DNA of 64,000 nucleotides from Candidatus Dormiibacterota bacterium (GTDB lineage Bacteria > Chloroflexota > Dormibacteria > Aeolococcales > Aeolococcaceae), in assembly GCA_963748505.1 (NCBI GenBank), contig CAVVJH010000001.1, forward strand, positions 73,124 through 137,123, in the 5' to 3' direction. Numbering within the stretch: the first letter of the stretch is position 1; every line of letters begins with the position of its first letter. A program made the position numbers and the translations under genes. Positions 4,722 through 17,401 of this stretch are shown here, one piece after another. The notes beneath the pieces were generated by a model. That model searched no databases, was not told the DNA's origin, and saw only the letters and a list, made by a program, of their open reading frames with translations.

Positions 4722-6338
4722 TTAGAGGACGACGGTGACGGTGGTCGAGCCACTGCCGGAGACGCCGTCGTTGTCGGTGACCGTGACCGTGATCGTGTAG
4801 CTCCGCAACAACGCGCTGTATGCGTGTGCAAGCACGAAGGTGGTGCCGTTGAGAGTCAGGACATGCGTACCGCTGCCGTCGCCGTAGTTGACCGTCGCGG
4901 TGAACGTGTGGTGAGCCAGATCGCTGTCGGTGAAGCTGCCGGAACCCGAGAAATGCCCCAGTACCGCGACACCTCCGGCCTTCACGGTGACCACCGGCGG
5001 CAGGTCGGGTGGAGGCGTCGGGGCGGGGGTGGGCATCGGGGTGCTCGTCGGGGCGGGAGTTGGTGTGGGTCCGGGCGATGGGGGCACGGTGGGTGTCGGA
5101 GTCGAGTTCGGCGGAGGGGTGGGACCGCCCGGCGCTGTCGTGCCGCCGCCGGGTGCGGGCGTCCCACCACCTGCACCGGTCGTTCCGGTCTGTCCGGGCG
5201 CGGGAGGCACGCTCGGTATCGAACCGGGCGGGGATGGCGTTGCCCCGCCGGTGCTGTGCGTGGGTTGGCCGCCCGTGGACACGGTCGAGATCCCCGAGGT
5301 GGGGCCGGCCGTCGGGCTCGGGCTGGTCAGTGCACCGGGACCGGTGAGTGCGATGGCAGTGGTTCCGGACATAACGGCCGCGCCCCAGTTCCATCCGAGC
5401 CGGTCAACCCAGCCAATCAGGGGGAGCTGCGCGATCCAGGAACCGAAGCCCACGACCCGCCAGAGCCGGCCCATTGAGATGTTGAGGAATGCGCGCACCA
5501 CCACCGGGTCGAACTGGCTCCCCGAGCACTTCACCAGTTCCTGCCGGGCCGCTGACACACTGACCGGCTTGCGATACGGCCGCACCGCGGTCATCACCTC
5601 GTAGGAATCCGCGACCGCCACGATGCGGCCGGCGAGCGAGATCTGATTGCCGGCGAGCCCACGGGGGTATCCGCGGCCGTCGAATCGCTCGTGGTGTTGG
5701 GGCACAGCGTCCGCCCACTCGCCGAGCCAGGAGCTGAGTGGCCCGATGAGCCGCGCCCCTTCCTCAGGATGGCGTTTGACGGCGTCGAACTCCGCGCTGG
5801 TGAGCTTTGCCGGCTTGGAGAGAATTGTTGCCGGCACGACCAGCTTGCCGATGTCGTGCAGCAGCGACGCCCAGCGAAGCCGAGCGCGGTCGCTCGGCGC
5901 CAGCTTCATCTCATCGGCGATGAGGTCAGCGAAGACCCGAACGCGCTCTGAGTGACCACGTGTCTGCCGATCGTGCACGCTCAGGGCCGCGACCAGCCCG
6001 AGCACTTTCTGCATGTACGCGGTGTCGCCGCCGGTGACCCCCTTGTCGCGTGCCTCCTGTAGCTGGCGCTGCAGGTCGCGTGGCTTGCCCACGCGCCGGG
6101 CGATCGCGAAGCGTTTCGGGGCGCGGTCCGGGAAGAGGAGCGAGAGATTGAGCAGGGCCGCAAGCGGGAGGAGGCGGCGCCCAGCGCGCTCCAGCGCGAC
6201 GATCACCACCAGCATGACGAGGCTGACCCCGGCGAACGACAGCGCGGCCGGACCGAGACCGTTCGGGCGCGGCAGGAGGCTGGTCATGATGACGCCTGCC
6301 GCGATGCCGGCAACGGCGGGGAGCACGACCACTGACAC
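4722..6338 (-). CDS. membrane-anchored HD-GYP domain phosphodiesterase with C-terminal Pro/Thr-rich linker and Ig/PKD-like beta domain
   Basis: HD motif (HDRQTRGHSERV, LLHDIGK) and HHERFDGRGYP (GYP). N-terminal TM helices. PTPTPAPTSTPMPTPAPTPPP low-complexity linker. C-terminal beta-rich ~110 aa. Confidence 0.85.
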   Translation of the reverse strand: MSVVVLPAVAGIAAGVIMTSLLPRPNGLGPAALSFAGVSLVMLVVIVALERAGRRLLPLAALLNLSLLFPDRAPKRFAIARRVGKPRDLQRQLQEARDKGVTGGDTAYMQKVLGLVAALSVHDRQTRGHSERVRVFADLIADEMKLAPSDRARLRWASLLHDIGKLVVPATILSKPAKLTSAEFDAVKRHPEEGARLIGPLSSWLGEWADAVPQHHERFDGRGYPRGLAGNQISLAGRIVAVADSYEVMTAVRPYRKPVSVSAARQELVKCSGSQFDPVVVRAFLNISMGRLWRVVGFGSWIAQLPLIGWVDRLGWNWGAAVMSGTTAIALTGPGALTSPSPTAGPTSGISTVSTGGQPTHSTGGATPSPPGSIPSVPPAPGQTGTTGAGGGTPAPGGGTTAPGGPTPPPNSTPTPTVPPSPGPTPTPAPTSTPMPTPAPTPPPDLPPVVTVKAGGVAVLGHFSGSGSFTDSDLAHHTFTATVNYGDGSGTHVLTLNGTTFVLAHAYSALLRSYTITVTVTDNDGVSGSGSTTVTVVL

Positions 6339-6622
6339 GCGGACCAGTGCGCTGAGGACTGGGCGGCGCTGCCACTGGTGGCCTGCTGGAACCGTCTCGG
6401 CTGCGGCGGCCTCGGGAGCATCTGCGATGAGTGGTTCACCTGGCGGTGCCCAGACCCGCGGCGTCGAGACGATGGCTCCAGGGCGCGAGCCTCGCTATAA
6501 GGTTCGGGCCTGTGGCGCCGGTCGTGGTCCCCGTTCGGAATTCTGTGGCGTACGGGTCACTCGCTTGTGGCAGCCGCCGCGTGGGTCAGATCGGCACGCT
6601 TTCCGGTTAGGATGCGGCCTCC

Positions 6623-7244
6623 ATGCCGATCAGCCTCCTGCGCCGCGAGCGGCGCTTCTACGACCTCTTCGACCGTCAGGCGGACAACGTCGTCGCCGCC
6701 GCGCAGCTGTTGAAGGCGGCGCTGGCTGACGACCTGTCGGCAATGCCGGCTCATCAGGCAGCGATCAAGGATCTCGAGCACGCCGGCGACGAACTCACCC
6801 ACGAAATCATCCAGACCCTCCATCGCACATTTATCACGCCGTTTGATCGCGAGGACATCTACGCGCTCAGCTCCGGCCTCGACGACGTGCTCGACTACGT
6901 CGACGAGATCGCCGAGACGATCATCCTCTACGGGATCAGCGACATCTCGCCGGCCGCGAAGTCGATGGCCGGGTTGATCGTTGAAGCGGCGCTGCAGGTT
7001 CAGGCGGCAGTGGGGAAACTCGAGTCGAAAAGCCGGCGTCAGCGAGCATGGGATCGAGGTGCACCGCATCGAGAATCTCGGCGACACCGAGTCCCGCCGG
7101 GCGATCGGGGACCTGTTCAGCGGGACCCATGACGCGGTCACGATCATCAAGCTCAAGGACTTCTACACGTTGCTCGAGGATTCGCTCGACCGTTGCGAGG
7201 ATGTGGCCAACGTGATTGAAGGCATCATCATCAAGAACGCGTGA
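6623..7244 (+). CDS. DUF47 (PhoU-like, Pit-accessory) protein; one apparent frameshift near 7025
   Basis: N-terminal part in ORF 6623..7132 (RRERRFYDLFDRQADNV...). Conserved C-terminus IEVHRIENLGDTESRRAIGDLFSG...LLEDSLDRCEDVANVIEGIIIKNA is in ORF 6981..7244. Stop TGA overlaps the GTG start of pit (GTGA). Confidence 0.7.
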
Positions 7245-8266
7245 CCGGCACCCACGTTCTGCTGGTCGTCACGATCCTGATCGCTTTGGGATTCGATTTC
7301 ACCAATGGTTTCCACGACACCGCCAACGCGGTCGCGACCTCCATCAGCACCCGTGCGCTCGGTCCGCGCACCGCGGTCGGACTCTCCGCTGCTTTCAACC
7401 TGATCGGCGCCCTTGTCGCCATCGAGATCCTGCACACGCACGTTGCCAACACCATCGGCGGACTGGTGGCACCGAAAGCCGGCGTATCACTGGGAATGAT
7501 CATCGCCGCGCTCATCGGCGCGATCATCTGGAATGTCATCACCTGGCGTCTCGGTTTGCCGTCGAGCTCGTCGCATGCCCTCATCGGCGCGCTGGTTGGC
7601 ATGGGCATCGTCGCCTACGGGTTCGACGCGGTGAAGTGGGGATCGGTGCTCCCCGTCGTGATTGCGCTGGTGGCGTCACCGCTGATCGGGTTCGTGCTCT
7701 CGTATCTGTTCACCGTGCTCACGCTCGACGTCTTTCGTCGTGCGCGGCCGAGTCCGATGAACCGCCGCTTCCGTCTCGCGCAGGTCTTGTCGGGGGCCTT
7801 CGTTTCGTTTTCGCACGGGGCCAACGATGCGCAGAAAACCATGGGCGTCATCACGCTCGCGCTGGTCAGCGCCGGCGTGGTGTCGGCGGGTGGGAAGACG
7901 TTCCCGTCGCCACCGCTCTGGGTGGTCGTCGTCGCCGCGACCGCGATCGGTCTTGGCACCTATTCCGGAGGATGGCGGATCATCCGGACCCTGGGGAGCA
8001 AGGTCATCCGCCTGGAGCCCGTTGATGGGTTCTGCGCGCAGACCATGGCTGCGGTCGTCATCCAGGGGGCGACCCAACTGGCGTTGCCGGTGAGCACCAC
8101 GCACGTGGTCTCGGGATCGGTGATCGGCGCCGGGGCGACCAGGAGGTTCGGTGCGGTGCGCTGGGGCGTGGCCCGCAACATTCTGGTCGCCTGGGTCCTG
8201 ACCATCCCGGCCACGGCCGCCATGGCTGCGATCTGCGCCCTGGTGGTCGAGCTCCTCAGGGTGTGA
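7241..8266 (+). CDS. pit: inorganic phosphate transporter, Pit (PiT) family
   Basis: LGFDFTNGFHDTANAVATSI and second half-repeat FSHGANDAQKTMGVI; polytopic; 341 aa. Confidence 0.9.
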   Translation: MTGTHVLLVVTILIALGFDFTNGFHDTANAVATSISTRALGPRTAVGLSAAFNLIGALVAIEILHTHVANTIGGLVAPKAGVSLGMIIAALIGAIIWNVITWRLGLPSSSSHALIGALVGMGIVAYGFDAVKWGSVLPVVIALVASPLIGFVLSYLFTVLTLDVFRRARPSPMNRRFRLAQVLSGAFVSFSHGANDAQKTMGVITLALVSAGVVSAGGKTFPSPPLWVVVVAATAIGLGTYSGGWRIIRTLGSKVIRLEPVDGFCAQTMAAVVIQGATQLALPVSTTHVVSGSVIGAGATRRFGAVRWGVARNILVAWVLTIPATAAMAAICALVVELLRV

Positions 8267-8918
8267 TGGTCGCCGGCGGCAGCAGCGCGCTCACCGCGGT
8301 CTCTTCGATCCAGCGCGCGTAGCGTTCCTGCGACCACCCGCGAACGTCGCGGAACAGCCGTTGCACGTCGGGGCTGGTCAGGGTCCAGAGGATCGCCGCT
8401 GCATCGTCGGTGCTGACCCCCTGTCGGAGCGGGCCGTTCGCCTCGATCCACCCGACCACGGTGCGCATGTTGCGGAATCGGTCTTCCTGATTGGCGGTCC
8501 GCGTGGTCGCGATCTCGGGATCGACCGCCGCGGCACTGCGGATGATGTCGTCCACCGGACGGAACCGTTCGATGATCCTCGCGATATCAGTCGCAAACAT
8601 CGCCAGCTGCCGGCGCTGATCCGGCTCCGCGCGAGTGGCCTGCGGGCCGGGTCGATCGAGCATGGACACCTGCTGATCGTCGCCGCCGACGCGCAGGCTG
8701 AAGAGGGCGAAGAGGATGCCGCGCTTGTTGCCGAAGCCGGCGTACACCGTGTCGACTGCGACGCCGGCGTCCGCGGCCACGGCCTCGATGGAGGTGGTCG
8801 CGTAGCCCCGCTCGGCAAAGAGTTGCTCGGCGGACTCGACGATGCGCAGGCGGGTCAGGCGTGCCTGGTCCTGGCGCAGACGCGAGGAGTACTTGCGCGG
8901 CTTGACAACGCTCATCAA
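8256..8918 (-). CDS. TetR/AcrR family transcriptional regulator
   Basis: N-terminal HTH RLRIVESAEQLFAERGYATTSIEAVAADAGVAVDTVYAGFGNK. Confidence 0.9.
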   Translation of the reverse strand: MMSVVKPRKYSSRLRQDQARLTRLRIVESAEQLFAERGYATTSIEAVAADAGVAVDTVYAGFGNKRGILFALFSLRVGGDDQQVSMLDRPGPQATRAEPDQRRQLAMFATDIARIIERFRPVDDIIRSAAAVDPEIATTRTANQEDRFRNMRTVVGWIEANGPLRQGVSTDDAAAILWTLTSPDVQRLFRDVRGWSQERYARWIEETAVSALLPPATITP

Positions 8919-8947
8919 TCTACCCTAGCATCGCTTTAGCCATCCGA

Positions 8948-9289
8948 GTGAGACTCGGAGCAATTCGATGGGAGAGAGCCATGTACGGATTCACTCAGGA
9001 TCTACCGATCACACCCGAGGTCTGGTTCCGGCTCAAAGCGGCCATCGGCACCGAGCCCATCGACGGTGCCGTGATGCACACGGTGATTCGGCACAACGGT
9101 GGCATTCGCTATATCGACATCTGGGAGTCGCGCGAGCAGTGCGATCGCTTCCTCGAGGAGCGTGTCCACCCGGTGCTGCAGGCGGTGTTCGCCGCTTCCG
9201 GTCAGCCGATGCCGGGCGAGCCGACCCGTGAGGAGTTCGAGGTCGTCGATGTGGTCTGGATGAGGGAGGCCCCGCCAGTCCCGGTCTGA
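8948..9289 (+). CDS. small conserved hypothetical protein (113 aa; alternative start 8981)
   Basis: Divergent from the TetR gene. Coding-like composition. Followed by a hairpin terminator. Confidence 0.5.
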   Translation: MRLGAIRWERAMYGFTQDLPITPEVWFRLKAAIGTEPIDGAVMHTVIRHNGGIRYIDIWESREQCDRFLEERVHPVLQAVFAASGQPMPGEPTREEFEVVDVVWMREAPPVPV

Positions 9290-9303
9290 GATCCATCGGC
9301 TAG

Positions 9304-9326
9304 GGGCGGCGATGGCCGCCCTTTCG
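9304..9326 (+). terminator. candidate intrinsic terminator (GGGCGGC-GATG-GCCGCCC hairpin followed by TTTCG)
   Basis: Perfect 7-bp stem with 4-nt loop, 15 nt after the stop of 8948..9289. Lies between convergent genes. Confidence 0.45.
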
Positions 9327-9336
9327 CTGCAAAGCC

Positions 9337-10563
9337 TCAGGGCTGACTGATTCCCTCATGGTTGAAGCGTGCATGGTGCTCAGCCAGGAGGTCGGCGCCG
9401 TAGTCACCGCCATTCGGCGTGCGAACGATGGTGTGGATGTGATGCCGCGATGGTTCGGGATTGTCGAACGCCACGCCGGGCAGGTGCTCGAACTCGATCA
9501 GCACCACCGGGCTGTGCAGCCGGTAGTAGAAGGGGGCAGTTGGGCCGGTGCCGCCCATCCAGGCGAACCACGTGTCGTCGAGGTGTCTCGCCACTTCGTC
9601 CATCTTCACGGTGGCGTACGCGTCGCGCGCCCACCCGACGTACGCCGCGATCGCGTCAGTCAGGAGCGCTCGCTGCGCGTCCGAGAGACCGTCGGCGCGA
9701 ATGCCGCAGTACGAGAGGACCGCGTTGTCACGGAACGCGCCCGTCTGAGTCAGGTTGTCGACGGGGTGCAGCAAATGGGGTGGGATCGCGTCCCGCATGA
9801 TCGACGGGAACTGGATTGCAACTTGTCGTTGATCTTCATCGAGCGAGCGGATCAGGTCGAGGCCGACACGCTCCTCGAGATCGAGCACTCGAACTCCAGC
9901 GAAGCGACCGCTTCCTCCGTCGCACGGCTCCGAACCCATGAAGGCCGGGGTCATCGCCATTTCGTTGCCGACGAGGACGCAATTGACCGCGAGATGATGC
10001 CCGTCGAACTGGAACCCCCAGGGCACCTCCGCATTGGGCACGCCAAAGAACGACACGAAATACGGCCATTCCCCGTAGTCATCGACCCGGCCGGTCAACT
10101 CTGCGAGCAAATCGTTCAGGCGCATGATGTCGCGAGCCTGCGCATAGCCACGAGCCGACAGCGTGACGCGAAGCAAGTCAAGGAATGCGTGCCGTGCAGG
10201 CGCCGACAGCTCCTCGAGCATGACGCCGTGTCGATACACGTTGATGTGCGGGTTGAACCATGAGCGCCAGAGGTTGGATTCAAACGGAAAGCACAAGCGC
10301 GAGCGCGTTGGTGCGTCCACCGACGCGAGAAATACCTCGGCCGCCTCCTTGATTGCCTCGGTCGCCACGCTGGTCCGAACCCGGTCGCGAGCCGAGAGCA
10401 CTCCATCGGTCGTGACGCCACGGAATGGTTCAGCCAGCGCGGCGTCGTTCTCCGCGAGAATGGGAGCAAAGAATTCAACCACCACCGGAATGTCTCGAAC
10501 CGGCGATCGTGCCGATATCGACATACCCTCGCGAACCCCGAACTCGGTCCAGTCGCTCATCAT
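9337..10563 (-). CDS. DUF3500 family protein
   Basis: YFVSFFGVPNAEVPWGFQFDGHHLAVNCVLVGNEMAMTPAFMGSEP signature. Start taken at MMSDWTEF; the longer ORF to 10713 overlaps the divergent GNAT gene. Confidence 0.8.
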   Translation of the reverse strand: MMSDWTEFGVREGMSISARSPVRDIPVVVEFFAPILAENDAALAEPFRGVTTDGVLSARDRVRTSVATEAIKEAAEVFLASVDAPTRSRLCFPFESNLWRSWFNPHINVYRHGVMLEELSAPARHAFLDLLRVTLSARGYAQARDIMRLNDLLAELTGRVDDYGEWPYFVSFFGVPNAEVPWGFQFDGHHLAVNCVLVGNEMAMTPAFMGSEPCDGGSGRFAGVRVLDLEERVGLDLIRSLDEDQRQVAIQFPSIMRDAIPPHLLHPVDNLTQTGAFRDNAVLSYCGIRADGLSDAQRALLTDAIAAYVGWARDAYATVKMDEVARHLDDTWFAWMGGTGPTAPFYYRLHSPVVLIEFEHLPGVAFDNPEPSRHHIHTIVRTPNGGDYGADLLAEHHARFNHEGISQP

Positions 10564-10600
10564 CAACTCTCTCCTCGCTTCGCGCAGACTCGGGCGGATC

Positions 10601-11116
10601 ATGACCAACTTATCGCTCCCGGAGTCCAACGCAGAGGACCCGATCCCGACCCCGGCGGTGGTCGAGGTGGTGCCGATCGACCCGGGGCAACCGGACGCGC
10701 AGCGCTGTCTCACGGCCTACGTCGAAGAGCTGAATCGGCGTTTCGACGCCGGGTTCGATCCGACACGAAGCATCTCCGCGGGCGTGGAGGAGATGCGGCC
10801 CCCGTCGGGGCTGTTCCTGATTGCCAGGGTCAACGGCGAGACCGTCGGCTGCGGCGCGCTCAAGTTCCACGGCGACAGTCCCGCGGAACTCAAGCGCATG
10901 TGGGTCAGCGACAGCGTCCGGGGCCTTGGCATCGGGCGCCGCCTCCTGACCGAGCTCGAGGTCCAGGCAACGGCGCACGGCGTCCGGGTGCTGCACCTCG
11001 AGACCAATGGCACGCTGGAGGCTGCGATCGCCCTCTATCGGTCTGCCGGCTACGTTGAGGTTGCTCCCTTCAACGACGAGCCGTACGCCCACCATTGGTT
11101 CGAGAAGCACATTTGA
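10601..11116 (+). CDS. GNAT family N-acetyltransferase
   Basis: Start MTNLSLPESN. Motif A region RMWVSDSVRGLGIGRRLL. Ends HHWFEKHI*. Confidence 0.8.
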   Translation: MTNLSLPESNAEDPIPTPAVVEVVPIDPGQPDAQRCLTAYVEELNRRFDAGFDPTRSISAGVEEMRPPSGLFLIARVNGETVGCGALKFHGDSPAELKRMWVSDSVRGLGIGRRLLTELEVQATAHGVRVLHLETNGTLEAAIALYRSAGYVEVAPFNDEPYAHHWFEKHI

Positions 11117-11155: not shown

Positions 11156-14149
11156 ATGGAGAGATCAGTGATGTCGGCATACGATCCGCGTCCGCGCCAC
11201 GGCCGCGCCGGGACAGCGCTGCTGGCCTCGCTGGCGGCGGGCGGCATGGTGATCGGTGCGCCGATCCTGCAAGCGCAACCAGCTGCCGCGCAGACCCGCG
11301 TCTCGACCATCCCCGCAGGGTTCAGCGACTGGACGATGCACAACGGCGATCCCCTGCATCACGCGGTGTCGGCCGAGACGATCCTCTCCAACACGACGCA
11401 GTTCAAATTGCACTGGAGCGCCAACACGGGCTCGCTGAGCTTCTCGTCCCCGGCGGTCGCGTTCAACCCGACGCTCAACGAATCGCTCGTGTATGTCGGC
11501 AACCAAGCCGGCGAGTTCACTGCCTACAACGCTGCCACGGGCGGCGTGGTGTGGACGTTTCAGGTGCCCAAAACCGCGGGGCTCTCCAAGGAGATCGAAT
11601 CGTCGCCGGCAGTTTCGGGCAACACCGTCTATTTCGGTGACGGCGACTACCACGAGTACGCCCTCAACGCGACGACGGGAGCGCTGATCTGCACCTCGCC
11701 GTCGATGGGCGGGATCAGTGCGTCGTCACCGGTGATCGGCAACCCGGCCGGCACCGGGGACGTCCTGTACTTCGGTGATTCCGGGGCGAGCGGTGACACC
11801 AGTGACGGCGGCCATCTGTGGGCGATGTACGGCGTGGGTAACAGTGGCGGCGCGGCGTGCGCAATCTATTGGTCCTTCGATGCTTTCGGAAACCCTCCCG
11901 GGAGTCAGACGGGCTCGTCAGGGGTGTACTCGACGCCCGCCTACGGCACCCTCGCGAATGGCTCACCGGTGGTCGTGGTCGGGAGCACGGATCCTGACGA
12001 TGCGATCTACGGATTCAACGCAATCACCGGTGCAGCGCTCTGGCGGTTCCAGGCATTCGTCGGCATCGACGCCGACATCGGATCGCCGCCGACCATTGCT
12101 GCGCCTCACACCATCGGTGCGGTCGGTTCGCAGACCTACAACGACGGCGTGGTGTACGACACGAGCAAGTCGGCGATCCTCTATGCGCTCGACCTCCAGA
12201 CCGGTGCACAGCTCTGGTCGTTCAACATCAAGACGAGCATCGGGCACGGCGGCAACCCCGCGCAATCGGGAGCCGCACTGGTCGGCAATTTCATCTACAT
12301 CGGCTACGGCTCAGGCATGTACTCACTCGACGCAACCACGGGTGCGCTCAACTGGGTGAGTTCGGTCACGACCGGCGTGGTGTCATCGCCGTCGGTGACC
12401 GGTCCGCCGGGCAGCCAGGTGATCGCGGTCGGGGATCTGACCGGGAACGTCGACGTCTTCGATTTGACGACGGGCAACCTGTTGTTCACCTACAGCACCG
12501 GCGCCTACATCTTCGCGTCCGCCGGTATCTCGACAGGACAGTTCTTCATCACGAGCACCACGGGAGACATCTACGCCTTCGGCGCCAGCAGCGGTGTGCC
12601 GACGCCGGCGATCACGTCCGTCACCCCAAACCACGGCGCGGTCGGCGGAAGCGAGGTCGTGAGCATCAACGGGAACCAGTTCAGCGGGAGTGGCTTCACC
12701 ACATCGGACGTGCTGTTCAACGGCATCGACATCCCGTCGACCAATGCCTTCCCGTGTCTGGGTTCGGCCGGGGGTTGCTTCCAGGTGGATACTCCCGCGC
12801 AGATCACCGTGGACACCCCGGTGAGCGCGGCCGGCACGGTCGATGTCAAGGTGGTGACGCCGGGAGGGCCCAGTCCCAGTACCTCGGACGACCAGTACAC
12901 GTTCGTCGCGCCCGGCGCCTATACCGCGCTGACGCCCCTGCGCATCTGTGACACACGCGCCAATTCCGGTGCACCCCAGTGCGCTGGACACACGCTCGCG
13001 GCCGGCGGATCCTTCACGGTGCAGATCACCGGCACGCCGATCCCAACCAACGCGCAGGCCGTCGTCATCAACCTGACCGCCATCAATCACGGGAGCGTCT
13101 CGACCTTCGTCAGCGCCTTCCCGGCGGGTGGCGCCGTTCCTCGGGCATCGAACATCAACCTGGCATCGGGCGCAGTCAACTCGAATCTCGCGTTCGTGCA
13201 GTTGAGCGCCACCGGCAAGATCACGCTGTTCAACTCGCTCGGCAGCGCCGATGTGATCGTCGACGTCCAGGGCTACTTCGCGCCGCCCGGCGCGGCGCCG
13301 GTCCCCGGAACCTTCCACTCGATGCCGCCTCTCCGGATCTGTGACTCGCGGGCCGGCCAGAACACCGAGTGCGCGACGACGAAAAACAGTCCGATCGCTG
13401 CCGGGACGTGGCGGCGGGTCGTCCTCTCTGGTCTGCCGCCAGGCGCCCCTGGTGGCACGCCATCGATTCCGACGACAGGAGCAGCGGCGGCGGCGTTCAA
13501 CCTCACCGCAACCGCCGGCACGGCCTCGACATACCTCGCGGTCACGGCACCCAATGCATCGGACGCCTGCCCGACCTCCGCTCCCCGGTTTTCGAATCTC
13601 AACCCGGCCGCGGGTGGGAGCATCCCGATTCGCGCGATCTCTCCACTCGGCCCGCACCAGGACGTCTGCGTGTTCAACGCCGCCGGAAGCATCAACTTCA
13701 TCATCGATGTGAACGGCTGGTTCGGGAACGGTCATGAGAGCGCTACCGGAGCGCGCTTCTACTCGGTGGCCCCGGCGCGCATCTGCGATACCCGCCAGGG
13801 ATCCGGCACCGAGTGCGACAGCAATCCGCTCACCCCGAACGACACCGAGATCCTGCCGGTTGCCGGCGTGTCGCCGACGCCCGCCGAAGGTGGCGCGGTC
13901 AAGCCGGTTGCGGTGGTCGTGAACCTCACCGGCGTCGCGGGGACGGCTGCAACGGTGCTCGTGCTCTATCCGAGCGACGTGAGCCCCCGGCCGAAGGCAT
14001 CAGACCTCAACCCCAATGCCGGGCAGGTCATCGCCAATCTCGCCATCGTGAGCCTCGCCCAGACTGGAGGGAACAGCGGTGACGTGAACATGTTCAATGC
14101 GGTCGGGACGATCGACGCCATCCTCGACGTCGCGGGCTGGTTCCAGTAG
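11156..14149 (+). CDS. large secreted multidomain protein: signal peptide, PQQ-like beta-propeller, IPT/TIG domain, three tandem ~130-aa repeats
   Basis: Signal peptide ALLASLAAGGMVIGAPILQAQPAAAQ. Propeller blades (VYFGD..YALNATTGAL, LYALDLQTGAQLWSF, MYSLDATTGALNWVS). IPT (ITSVTPNHGAVGGSEVVSINGNQFSG). Repeats begin YTALTPLRICDTR / FHSMPPLRICDSR / FYSVAPARICDTR. Uninterrupted 997-aa ORF. Confidence 0.85.
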   Translation: MERSVMSAYDPRPRHGRAGTALLASLAAGGMVIGAPILQAQPAAAQTRVSTIPAGFSDWTMHNGDPLHHAVSAETILSNTTQFKLHWSANTGSLSFSSPAVAFNPTLNESLVYVGNQAGEFTAYNAATGGVVWTFQVPKTAGLSKEIESSPAVSGNTVYFGDGDYHEYALNATTGALICTSPSMGGISASSPVIGNPAGTGDVLYFGDSGASGDTSDGGHLWAMYGVGNSGGAACAIYWSFDAFGNPPGSQTGSSGVYSTPAYGTLANGSPVVVVGSTDPDDAIYGFNAITGAALWRFQAFVGIDADIGSPPTIAAPHTIGAVGSQTYNDGVVYDTSKSAILYALDLQTGAQLWSFNIKTSIGHGGNPAQSGAALVGNFIYIGYGSGMYSLDATTGALNWVSSVTTGVVSSPSVTGPPGSQVIAVGDLTGNVDVFDLTTGNLLFTYSTGAYIFASAGISTGQFFITSTTGDIYAFGASSGVPTPAITSVTPNHGAVGGSEVVSINGNQFSGSGFTTSDVLFNGIDIPSTNAFPCLGSAGGCFQVDTPAQITVDTPVSAAGTVDVKVVTPGGPSPSTSDDQYTFVAPGAYTALTPLRICDTRANSGAPQCAGHTLAAGGSFTVQITGTPIPTNAQAVVINLTAINHGSVSTFVSAFPAGGAVPRASNINLASGAVNSNLAFVQLSATGKITLFNSLGSADVIVDVQGYFAPPGAAPVPGTFHSMPPLRICDSRAGQNTECATTKNSPIAAGTWRRVVLSGLPPGAPGGTPSIPTTGAAAAAFNLTATAGTASTYLAVTAPNASDACPTSAPRFSNLNPAAGGSIPIRAISPLGPHQDVCVFNAAGSINFIIDVNGWFGNGHESATGARFYSVAPARICDTRQGSGTECDSNPLTPNDTEILPVAGVSPTPAEGGAVKPVAVVVNLTGVAGTAATVLVLYPSDVSPRPKASDLNPNAGQVIANLAIVSLAQTGGNSGDVNMFNAVGTIDAILDVAGWFQ
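12915..14146 (+). repeat. three intragenic tandem domain repeats (~400 nt each) each starting with a P-x-RICD[TS]R motif
   Basis: Repeat starts seen at about 12917, 13321 and 13760. Shared pattern: VxxNLTA...NxNG...IDVxGWF/YF. Confidence 0.6.
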
Positions 14150-16191: not shown

Positions 16192-17401
16192 GTGGCGCCG
16201 TTCTGCAAGAGTTTCGCGGTGCTGGAGACCGATGTCGTGGTGGTCGGAGCAGGTCCGAGCGGCGCCACCGCAGCGCTGCTGCTGGCTCGGGCCGGCCGGC
16301 AGGTGGTGCTCGTCGACCGCGCACGGTTCCCACGCGACAAGGCCTGCGGGGAGGGATTGATGCCTCCGGGAGTGGACGTCCTGCGCCGCCTCGGGCTCTA
16401 CGACGCCGTGCTCGAGACCGGTGCGCGGCCGGTCCACGGAGTGAGGTATCAGCACCCCGGCGGCTTCCCCAAGGCGTACGCGGCGTTCCCGACGCCACCC
16501 GAGGGCGGACCCGCGTGGGCCTTGGGTATCCGGCGGACCTGGTTCGATGCCGCGCTGGTCGACGCGGTGCGGCGGGAAGATCGAGCGACGGTCATCGAAG
16601 GCGCGCGCGTCACCGGCCTCATCCGTTCGGCGTCGGGCCGAGTGTCGGGCGTCGAGACCAGCGGCGGTCCCATCGGCGCGCGGATCGTCATCGGCGCGGA
16701 CGGGCTCCACTCGAAAGTCCGCGCCTGGGCAGGGCTCAACAAGCGGTCACGTCCACAGCGGCGATTCGGTTTAGCCGGACACTGGCGGGTCGACACCACC
16801 GGCCGCGACGCCCTGCTCATCACGCTCGGCGATGGACACGAGTGGTACGAGGCTCCGGTTGGTCCGGCAGGAGCTCCTGGTGTCGGTGCTTGACGGCCGG
16901 TCGCACTCGCGACTCACGGCGCGCACCTATGAGCAGGCTGCGCGGCAGAGCGTTCCGGCCGTGCGGGACGCGGCGTTGGTGTCCCGACCGCTCGGCGGTG
17001 CCCAATTCCATCAACGCAGTCGCGCCGCCGCTGCGGGGCGGGTGTTCCTCGTCGGCGATGCAATCGGCTACGACGATCCGACCACCGGCGACGGCCTCGC
17101 GATTGGGATGCTCCTCGCCGAGCGACTCGCGAAGCACATCGACGCCCTGCTCGGCGGTGCGGGTTCGCCCGGCGTGGCGGCTCGGCACTACCAGGCCGAC
17201 CACGTCTCGCTGGTGCGCGACCGTCGCCGTCTGACCCGACTGGTGCTCGTCCAGGACCGGTCGCAGTTTCTGAGCCGCCGCGCCATCAACAAGGCCGCGC
17301 GGGACCCGCGGACGTTCACCAAGCTGCTGGCCATCAACTGCGGCTATCAGCGATTCCGGGAGCTGTCGCCACGGGACTGGCTGTCGCTCGCGGGGATCTG
17401 A
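16192..17401 (+). CDS. FAD-dependent oxidoreductase, geranylgeranyl-reductase-like family; one apparent frameshift near 16860
   Basis: DVVVVGAGPSGATAALLLARAGRQVVLVD dinucleotide-binding motif; GADGLHSKVR. C-terminal VFLVGDAIGYDDPTTGDGLAIGM lies in ORF 16832..17401. Confidence 0.75.

Follow-up and report, generated by a model that had tools for sequence, protein, structure and literature searches.

The window that we analysed, a 64-kb stretch of DNA from a Candidatus Dormibacterota bacterium, carries at positions 11156–14149 of its forward strand a complete gene (ATG start, 997 amino acids plus stop) for what would be a Sec-secreted, multi-domain extracellular protein. It comprises a signal peptide, an eight-bladed β-propeller, an IPT/TIG domain and a C-terminal module of three predicted jelly rolls. 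The initial annotation of this gene had described a secreted protein with a propeller, an IPT/TIG domain and three tandem repeats, an architecture that proved correct when judged by the open reading frame (ORF), the Pfam matches and the comparison of the repeats. The C-terminal module represents a family that, judged from sequence searches, is real and apparently undescribed, without a Pfam or NCBIfam name. By analogy with known repeats, it is possible, if short of probable, that the module is a pseudo-trimeric binding head, contained in a single chain, which holds proteins at a glycopolymer of the wall, and this is the reading that we favour.

In the mechanism that we propose, the propeller would be the variable ‘payload’ and the TIG domain a spacer, while the C-terminal 411 amino acids (aa) would form a self-contained three-jelly-roll module folding as one rigid body. 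This module, a putative non-catalytic binding head and in effect a trimer in a single chain, would attach the protein, by non-covalent contacts, to a surface that bears glycans; the likeliest such surface is a wall-linked polymer of the producer’s own monoderm envelope. The invariant polar set P-x-R-x-x-D-T-R, N-x-T, S-N-x-N, N and D-x-x-G-[WY]-F would form binding or interface sites and, in the Dormibacterota branch, a disulfide would staple the loop following the first strand.

Three diverged repeats in the C-terminal module

Repeat 1 (positions 12914–13306, aa 587–717) starts with TPLRICDTR and ends with VDVQGYF; repeat 2 (13307–13747, aa 718–864), the longest of the three, with an insertion, runs from PPLRICDSR to IDVNGWFGNG; and repeat 3 (13748–14146, aa 865–997) starts with APARICDTR and closes the protein with LDVAGWFQ (all on the forward strand, as are the other parts of the gene given below). 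The repeats are approximately 130–147 aa long and share 36–37% pairwise identity with 30 invariant columns, giving a consensus start P-x-R-I-C-D-[TS]-R and a consensus end [VIL]-D-V-x-G-[YW]-F. The polar residues R, D, R, N, T, S, N, N and D are invariant in every copy; counted along repeat 1, the invariant residues include R10, D13, R15, N53, T55, S79, N82, N91, N107 and D117. A hidden Markov model (HMM) of a single repeat, built from 33 sequences, 30 of them from other proteins, matched the three repeats in the window (E = 5.4e-43, 3.3e-44 and 5.6e-49, respectively) and nothing else. An invariant N-x-T (NLT or NVT) lies in the middle of a β-strand in every repeat, here as N-L-T at 13070–13078, 13499–13507 and 13922–13930; though shaped like an N-glycosylation sequon, the motif more probably serves the structure or contacts a ligand.

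The initial annotation could not assign the repeats to a named family, and neither could our searches. Pfam gave no match on aa 583–997, including single repeats at E ≤ 10, and no NCBIfam model covers the module; the same holds for both databases on two full-length actinobacterial proteins carrying the module. The single-repeat profile retrieved from the PDB sequences at E ≤ 10 titin only (E = 0.25), and phmmer against the same sequences returned matches for the propeller and none for the module. A literature search on the motif variants LLDTR, VLDTR, ICDTR and FLDTR yielded nothing relevant.

The initial annotation had also asked whether the repeats might be an artefact of assembly. As DNA, the copies resemble each other in only one 32-nt stretch, at 72–75% identity, and Tandem Repeats Finder (TRF) reported no tandem array in the repeat region. 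Assembly duplication is thus excluded by the divergence of the DNA copies. More generally, the probability that a collapsed or duplicated segment, or an annotation error, produced the repeats is practically nil, given protein copies that are only 36–37% identical and an ordered R1-R2-R3 layout that is seen again in hundreds of assemblies made independently, complete Streptomyces plasmids among them. The repeats are real, old and diverged copies.

Cysteine pairs covary across the family

In each repeat the cysteine of the starting motif is followed by a second one 10–11 residues later (598/609, 729/739 and 877/887). The initial annotation had rightly noted this second cysteine but placed it 10–25 residues downstream, and only the low end of that range is found. 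It had also called the motif cysteine invariant in the three repeats, which does not hold family-wide: most actinobacterial copies have a leucine at this position (R[FLIV]LDTR). Closer to home, C143, C153 and C252 of repeat 2 are invariant and its C219 is nearly invariant in the alignment of the module (module numbering). Moreover, all 12 cysteines of the protein fall into six pairs conserved among orthologues (179/235, 534/541, 598/609, 729/739, 805/838 and 877/887, of which 805/838 lies in repeat 2), and C179 and C235 are invariant in 24 orthologues.

The two cysteines at the start of the repeat come and go together. Where the motif cysteine is present (455 units), the next 22-aa loop contains exactly one cysteine in every case (455/455). 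Where it is absent (486 units), the loop contains none in 424 units, two in 53 and one in nine, that is, zero or two in 477/486. Indeed, the cysteine count is even in about 97% of 966 repeat units. This paired covariation supports the disulfide pairing that the initial annotation had envisaged, and the conserved pairs together with the even counts fit an oxidising, extracellular location.

Predicted structure of the module

An AlphaFold2 model of the module (aa 587–997, alignment of 77 sequences) is all-β, with about seven to eight strands per repeat, and reaches a predicted local distance difference test score (pLDDT) of 95.7 and a predicted template modelling score (pTM) of 0.92, with a pLDDT above 90 for repeat 1. 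Since the pTM is high, the three repeats are predicted to lie in a fixed mutual arrangement, as one rigid body. The jelly-roll fold class is likewise a prediction of the model.

Foldseek searches against the PDB and the viral structures of BFVD gave matches at the level of the fold class only, with whole-module TM scores of at most 0.23; those from BFVD were generic serial jelly rolls. In structure, the repeats come closest to an adhesive-fibre tip, followed by a GH87 accessory domain, the carbohydrate-binding modules (CBMs) of families 36, 35, 6 and 22, viral jelly-roll capsids, C1q and nucleoplasmin. No enzyme fold is found among the close structural neighbours, glycosidase accessory domains aside. 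Neither a sequence match nor a close structural match with a ligand or Ca2+ site places the repeats in CBM6, CBM22, CBM35 or CBM36.

The fibre tip is the C-terminal tip domain of Bd2133, from the Bdellovibrio bacteriovorus MAT fibre (PDB entries 8OK3 and 8OND), described as a previously uncharacterised β-sandwich without homologues in the PDB, which forms a homotrimer at the end of the adhesive fibre with water, Na+ and Cl− on its threefold axis (Caulton et al., 2024; PMC10769870). The repeats resemble this sandwich in fold, with 13% identity in the structural alignment, and the profile search of the PDB sequences (E ≤ 10) revealed no sequence homology between them. Bd2133 contributes one copy per chain to a homotrimer on a β-helix fibre in a diderm predator, whereas the module fuses three diverged copies into a single chain, where they follow globular payloads, and occurs in monoderm lineages.

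For the whole module, the best PDB match is the engineered single-chain C1q head 5HZF (E = 2.5e-5, Foldseek probability 1.0). Both are composed of three serial jelly rolls in one chain, forming one head. The C1q/TNF trimers differ from the module in the relative placement of the sandwiches and share no sequence similarity with it: the global TM score with 5HZF is only 0.22 (root-mean-square deviation 19.3 Å), so the sandwiches of the module are not arranged in the C1q manner.

Copy number and placement of the module

Copy number was surveyed in 383 collected proteins, and placement in the 332 of these with at least three repeats. Exactly three full repeats are present in 322/383. Most of the proteins with one or two repeats are short or incomplete sequences. 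Higher counts range from four to six, with a full six in three proteins, and we read the four- and five-copy proteins as partly detected double modules. The variation in copy number for which the initial annotation had proposed a survey is thus no feature of the family. The six-repeat proteins (P0122, P0123 and P0144) consist of two complete triple modules. In P0123 and P0144 both modules stand in tandem at the N-terminus, and in P0123 they are followed by RCC1 repeats; this protein also has a sub-threshold S_layer_C stretch. Fragments aside, none of the 383 sequences is a single-repeat protein of the kind that could form a homotrimer, and single-repeat plasmid matches considered as such candidates proved to be three-repeat modules.

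The module is terminal in 324/332 proteins, C-terminal in 305 and N-terminal, immediately after the signal peptide, in 19; it is internal in the remaining eight. Complete carrier proteins begin with signal peptides. Within the Dormibacterota branch the three positions have become distinct, with a median identity between repeats of the same protein of 44% and a second repeat that is always the longest and has an extra cysteine pair. In the actinobacterial branch all three copies are R1-like, and the within-protein identity has a median of 61% and reaches 99%. The Actinomycetota repeats have been homogenised or re-duplicated while the count of three was kept, which argues for a structural need for three. 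We regard this preserved triplet as the best indirect sign that the three copies make up an obligate structural unit.

Payloads and comparison with known wall-binding repeats

The partners of the module are diverse. Ig-like or spacer domains are represented by TIG, PKD, fn3, Big_3_5, He_PIG and FlgD_ig, TIG being the commonest domain directly before the module (24/60 proteins). The peptidase partners are Peptidase_A4 (G1), Peptidase_S8, Peptidase_C39-like and a sedolisin pro-domain. Others are likely to act on peptidoglycan, namely GH25, SLT and the Rv2525c-like domain PF08924 (about 20 of 120 matches to the 411-aa region). Other glycoside hydrolase (GH) partners are GH5 and GH18, and further partners are CAP, LamG, RCC1, NHL, BNR, lactonase and YncE-like propellers, cutinase and an RHS polymorphic toxin. 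Finally, in at least 12 proteins nothing but the module accompanies the signal peptide.

The RHS polymorphic toxin (WP_111072640.1) is encoded at positions 5356–9945 of locus L084 on the Curtobacterium plasmid NZ_CP126276.1, with its triple module N-terminal at aa 88–473, after the signal peptide. Its layout presumably resembles that of Bacillus subtilis WapA, which we take to have three CWB2 repeats before its RHS part. The WapA covered in PMC5817068 is that of S. mutans only.

The SLH fold is helical and the CWB2 fold is α/β, unlike the 130–147-aa all-β jelly-roll repeats described here. Both SLH (PF00395) and CWB2 (PF04122) typically occur as three adjacent repeats forming a pseudo-trimer that binds wall polysaccharide via conserved arginine residues, with amidases, proteases, adhesins and S-layer proteins as payloads (PMC5817068). 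The likeness to the module lies in a three-repeat unit at either end of unrelated secreted payloads, many paralogues, conserved arginines and monoderm hosts; three adjacent repeats likewise act here as one unit on diverse secreted payloads, as judged from their number (322/383), their terminal position (324/332) and the predicted rigidity (pTM 0.92). The module differs from the SLH and CWB2 anchors of Firmicutes in that wall-polymer binding has been demonstrated for the latter, and it belongs to neither family: aa 583–997 gave no sequence match to SLH or CWB2 at Pfam E ≤ 10 on single repeats.

It is improbable, in our view, that the module is instead a structural or self-assembly unit without a specific small ligand, such as an S-layer-like coat lattice, an oligomerising base or a rigid pedestal. 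The predicted rigid three-domain body, serial jelly rolls as capsid-like building blocks, the module-only proteins and the S_layer_C stretch of a six-repeat protein would all suit such a role. However, no S_layer_C stretch passes the threshold by itself, polar residues that are invariant in every copy are seen more typically in binding sites than in lattice contacts, and the variety of payloads and the number of paralogues resemble those of anchor or targeting modules.

Distribution of the family

The repeats are no peculiarity of this gene. In an exhaustive search with the single-repeat HMM, 34,575 representative clusters (50% identity) scored at E ≤ 1e-3 and 11,183 at E ≤ 1e-30; the module is therefore shared by more than 34,000 such clusters, and the 997-aa gene itself is an ordinary member of a family abundant in public data. 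A search with the 411-aa module returned 216 proteins, the best 66% identical, and none of them has a Pfam annotation on the module. A scan of one genome per GTDB species revealed 492 relatives of the module, of which the best 80 are nearly all from Candidatus Dormibacterota metagenome-assembled genomes (MAGs) from peat, palsa, fen and other soils, with several ‘uncultured Chloroflexia’, and the closest locus, on JBEPVD010000027.1, is 91% identical.

Among the plasmids of PLSDB, tblastn located the module on 24, all from Actinomycetota (19 from Streptomyces, two from Arthrobacter, two from Curtobacterium and one from Aeromicrobium); the annotations call the carriers hypothetical, PKD, LamG-like, cutinase or RHS proteins. 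Starting from a Streptomyces module, a search returned 4,291 matches; all of the named ones are actinobacterial, and nearly all are labelled ‘hypothetical protein’. In culturable hosts, the module occupies, for example, aa 951–1320 of WP_331720616 from Streptomyces sp. NBC_00161 and aa 47–425 of WP_146248389 from Curtobacterium, and a 618-aa Arthrobacter protein is a further member. Phage records contain no match to the module, and 2.9 million viral contigs gave one weak match, for which reason a phage tail-fibre origin was dropped. The sole viral-contig match (L086, positions 5001–5369; IMGVR_UViG_3300020061_000006) is a single repeat-like stretch with 37% identity to repeat 1, within about 460 bases of an end of a 61.8-kb contig; this contig may be a prophage, or else cellular DNA that was classified wrongly.

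The sampled sources are all monoderm-type Terrabacteria, namely Dormibacterota and Chloroflexia MAGs and Actinomycetota. The Dormibacterota are the sister lineage of the Chloroflexota, within the mostly monoderm Terrabacteria (PMC10608941). Several paralogues of the module occur per genome, some of them clustered. On CAVOOO010000004.1, from an ‘uncultured Chloroflexia’ MAG, four module genes (L060, L062, L066 and L064) lie between approximately 382 and 518 kb, three of them within about 30 kb, and JBEKIT010000002.1 and CAWCVK010000001.1 carry several copies each; the clusters suggest local tandem expansion of the family. Six loci (L009, L011, L012, L028, L059 and L079) come from SMAG MAGs labelled Candidatus Acidiferrales, Saccharimonadales and Binatia. 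Their modules are 47–62% identical to the query, inside the Dormibacterota range of the same list, and the taxonomic labels may be wrong or the bins mixed.

Wall anchor or lectin-like head

The initial annotation had suggested either a cell-surface binding or an enzymatic scaffold. Binding at the cell surface is the best-supported reading, in view of the binding domains among the structural neighbours, the diversity of the payloads and the placement of the module. We favour an anchor on the producer’s own wall because the sandwiches appear non-catalytic, almost always number three, accompany many secreted payloads, have so far come from monoderm sources only and have a parallel in SLH and CWB2. 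The pseudo-threefold geometry, the binding of a ligand and the identity of that ligand are inferences. On a bolder view, the module could be the missing general non-covalent wall anchor of Actinomycetota, Chloroflexota and Dormibacterota, and a third independently evolved pseudo-trimer device beside SLH and CWB2; we regard this extension as doubtful.

Several points weigh against the wall-anchor reading. The functional assignment of the module rests on analogy, and the nearest folds, the fibre tip and the CBMs, recognise foreign surfaces or substrates and not the producer’s own wall. The predicted arrangement of the module does not superpose on the C1q trimer. The cutinase, GH5 and GH18 payloads act on external polymers, for which a substrate-targeting CBM is the ordinary reading, and proteins made up of a signal peptide and the module alone suit a free-standing lectin more than a simple anchor. 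Finally, the envelope type of the Dormibacterota is inferred from phylogeny only, and the restriction to monoderms rests on samples and not on all 34,575 clusters.

The main rival is a head of the lectin, adhesin or CBM kind that binds external ligands, for instance the polysaccharides of plants, fungi or other microbes, and that would bring enzymes, toxins and adhesin stalks to a substrate or target cell and not to the producer’s own wall. We consider it a serious candidate, though not a likely one. It is favoured by the identity of the best structural neighbours (the adhesive-fibre tip and CBM6/22/35/36), by the RHS toxin, cutinase, GH5 and GH18 among the payloads, by the existence of secreted module-only proteins and by the usual position of the module, distal and C-terminal behind the Ig-like spacers TIG, PKD, Big_3_5 and fn3 in the fashion of an adhesin stalk. 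However, classical CBMs are found mainly with glycoside hydrolases that act on one class of substrate, and in varying numbers of copies, whereas the module is fixed at three and most of its payloads are not glycoside hydrolases. In addition, Pfam gives no sequence match to any CBM family, and many paralogues with unrelated payloads, together with the monoderm restriction, fit a generic display system better.

The N-terminal region of the protein

The first 45 or so residues (positions 11156–11290) resemble a signal peptide: as read from the sequence, the n-region, PRPRHGRAG, is rich in arginine and is followed by the hydrophobic stretch TALLASLAAGGMVIGAPIL and by AAAQ; the orthologue consensus has a similar leader that ends in ASA. 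A disordered linker follows, up to about residue 75. A full-length AlphaFold2 model, which is of moderate quality (pLDDT 70, pTM 0.46) and was used for the blade count and the domain borders only, places in order a disordered segment (aa 1–75, pLDDT below 50), 32 strands, the TIG domain and the module, with dips in confidence at the linkers.

The propeller (positions 11387–12595, aa 78–480) contains the conserved cysteine pair 179/235. It matches PQQ_2 (PF13360) with 87 bits against a cut-off of 27.6, and the Pfam models PQQ and Beta-prop_ACSF4 also match in about the same range. Against the PDB sequences, phmmer retrieves BamB and quinoprotein chains at E values of 1e-7 to 1e-6. The 32 strands of the full-length model, in aa 83–477, were read as eight blades of four. 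The propeller thus shares with the BamB/PQQ_2 type a PF13360 score above the gathering threshold and eight four-stranded blades in the model, and differs in being secreted, in a lineage presumed to lack an outer membrane, and in failing the BamB equivalog models. Two specific identities were rejected: a dehydrogenase of alcohol or methanol dependent on pyrroloquinoline quinone (PQQ), for which TIGR03075 scores 57.2 bits against a cut-off of 480, and the outer-membrane assembly factor BamB, for which TIGR03300 scores 75 bits against 285 and NF008351 67.5 bits against 423. Since all of these NCBIfam scores are below threshold, the propeller is neither BamB nor a quinoprotein dehydrogenase, and on sequence grounds we class it as a cofactor-less propeller of the PQQ_2/BamB type.

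These scores also bear on the enzymatic scaffold of the initial annotation, which finds no support. That the repeats are catalytic, or that the whole protein is a PQQ-dependent enzyme with the repeats in an active scaffold, is very improbable. Such a reading could draw on the weak Pfam PQQ similarity (32.8 bits over aa 78–176) and on the strictly conserved polar residues of the repeats. Yet the dehydrogenase and BamB models fail, the propeller appears cofactor-less, the repeats resemble binding sandwiches and have glycosidase accessory domains as their only close neighbours from enzymes, and three tandem catalytic sites fused to unrelated enzymes would be unusual.

The IPT/TIG domain (positions 12605–12907, aa 484–584), which is Ig-like and contains the conserved cysteine pair 534/541, matches PF01833 over aa 484–582 marginally (21.5 bits against a cut-off of 20.9); the same match is recorded on the relatives P0397 and P0402. 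About 22 further Dormibacterota relatives, of 983–1016 aa, share the full architecture. The best full-length one, P0384 (992 aa, on JBEPVD010000027.1), is 94% identical over the N-terminal 586-aa query, and close relatives are named ‘PQQ-binding-like beta-propeller repeat protein’ by NCBI. The propeller is also found alone (about 475 aa) or with Big_9/PPC tails. Its occurrence without the module or with other C-terminal domains indicates that the module is an interchangeable add-on.

Genomic surroundings

The gene is, as the initial annotation held, the largest intact one in the window, its ORF being followed in length by one of 558 aa. The neighbouring genes (DUF3500, GNAT, DUF4190 and VTT/DedA) suggest no functional link to it, and no promoter or terminator consensus was found around it. 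Directly upstream, a 317-aa ORF (10163–11116, forward strand) has a GNAT domain confined to aa 205–297 and ends 39 nt before the gene starts. The long part of the ORF that precedes this domain overlaps the DUF3500 gene, which is read in the other direction (9337–10713, reverse strand), and for this reason the true GNAT start probably lies much further downstream than that of the ORF.

Further along, two overlapping forward-strand ORFs in different frames, 16192–16893 and 16832–17401, look like the two halves of one FAD (flavin adenine dinucleotide)-dependent oxidoreductase. The first matches just positions 1–173 of the 349-position FAD_binding_3 profile and the second contains the C-terminal motif of the GDA.. 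type. This apparently split gene, at 16192–17401, probably reflects a frameshift or an indel, in agreement with an earlier remark that the window contains many indels.

Implications

The module family is a sizeable annotation gap: it is unnamed in Pfam and NCBIfam despite its presence in the well-studied Streptomyces and Arthrobacter, where module-only proteins are labelled hypothetical. A fixed triple jelly-roll is a new form of a known principle, three repeats as one binding unit, and overturns nothing. It offers a hypothesis for how phyla with a monoderm envelope keep secreted enzymes, adhesins and toxins in place or direct them to a target, at a point where the non-covalent surface display of Actinomycetota and uncultured Dormibacterota is much less well described than that of Firmicutes. 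Should the module recognise external glycans as a lectin, it would still found a large new family of carbohydrate-binding heads. If it is an anchor, a family model would let the hypothetical module-only proteins be annotated, the module could become a new display tag, and sequence data could be used to sketch which Dormibacterota proteins are exposed at the surface. If, beyond this, it is a general wall anchor, it would define a large surface-displayed proteome in Actinomycetota, Chloroflexota and Dormibacterota, including Streptomyces.

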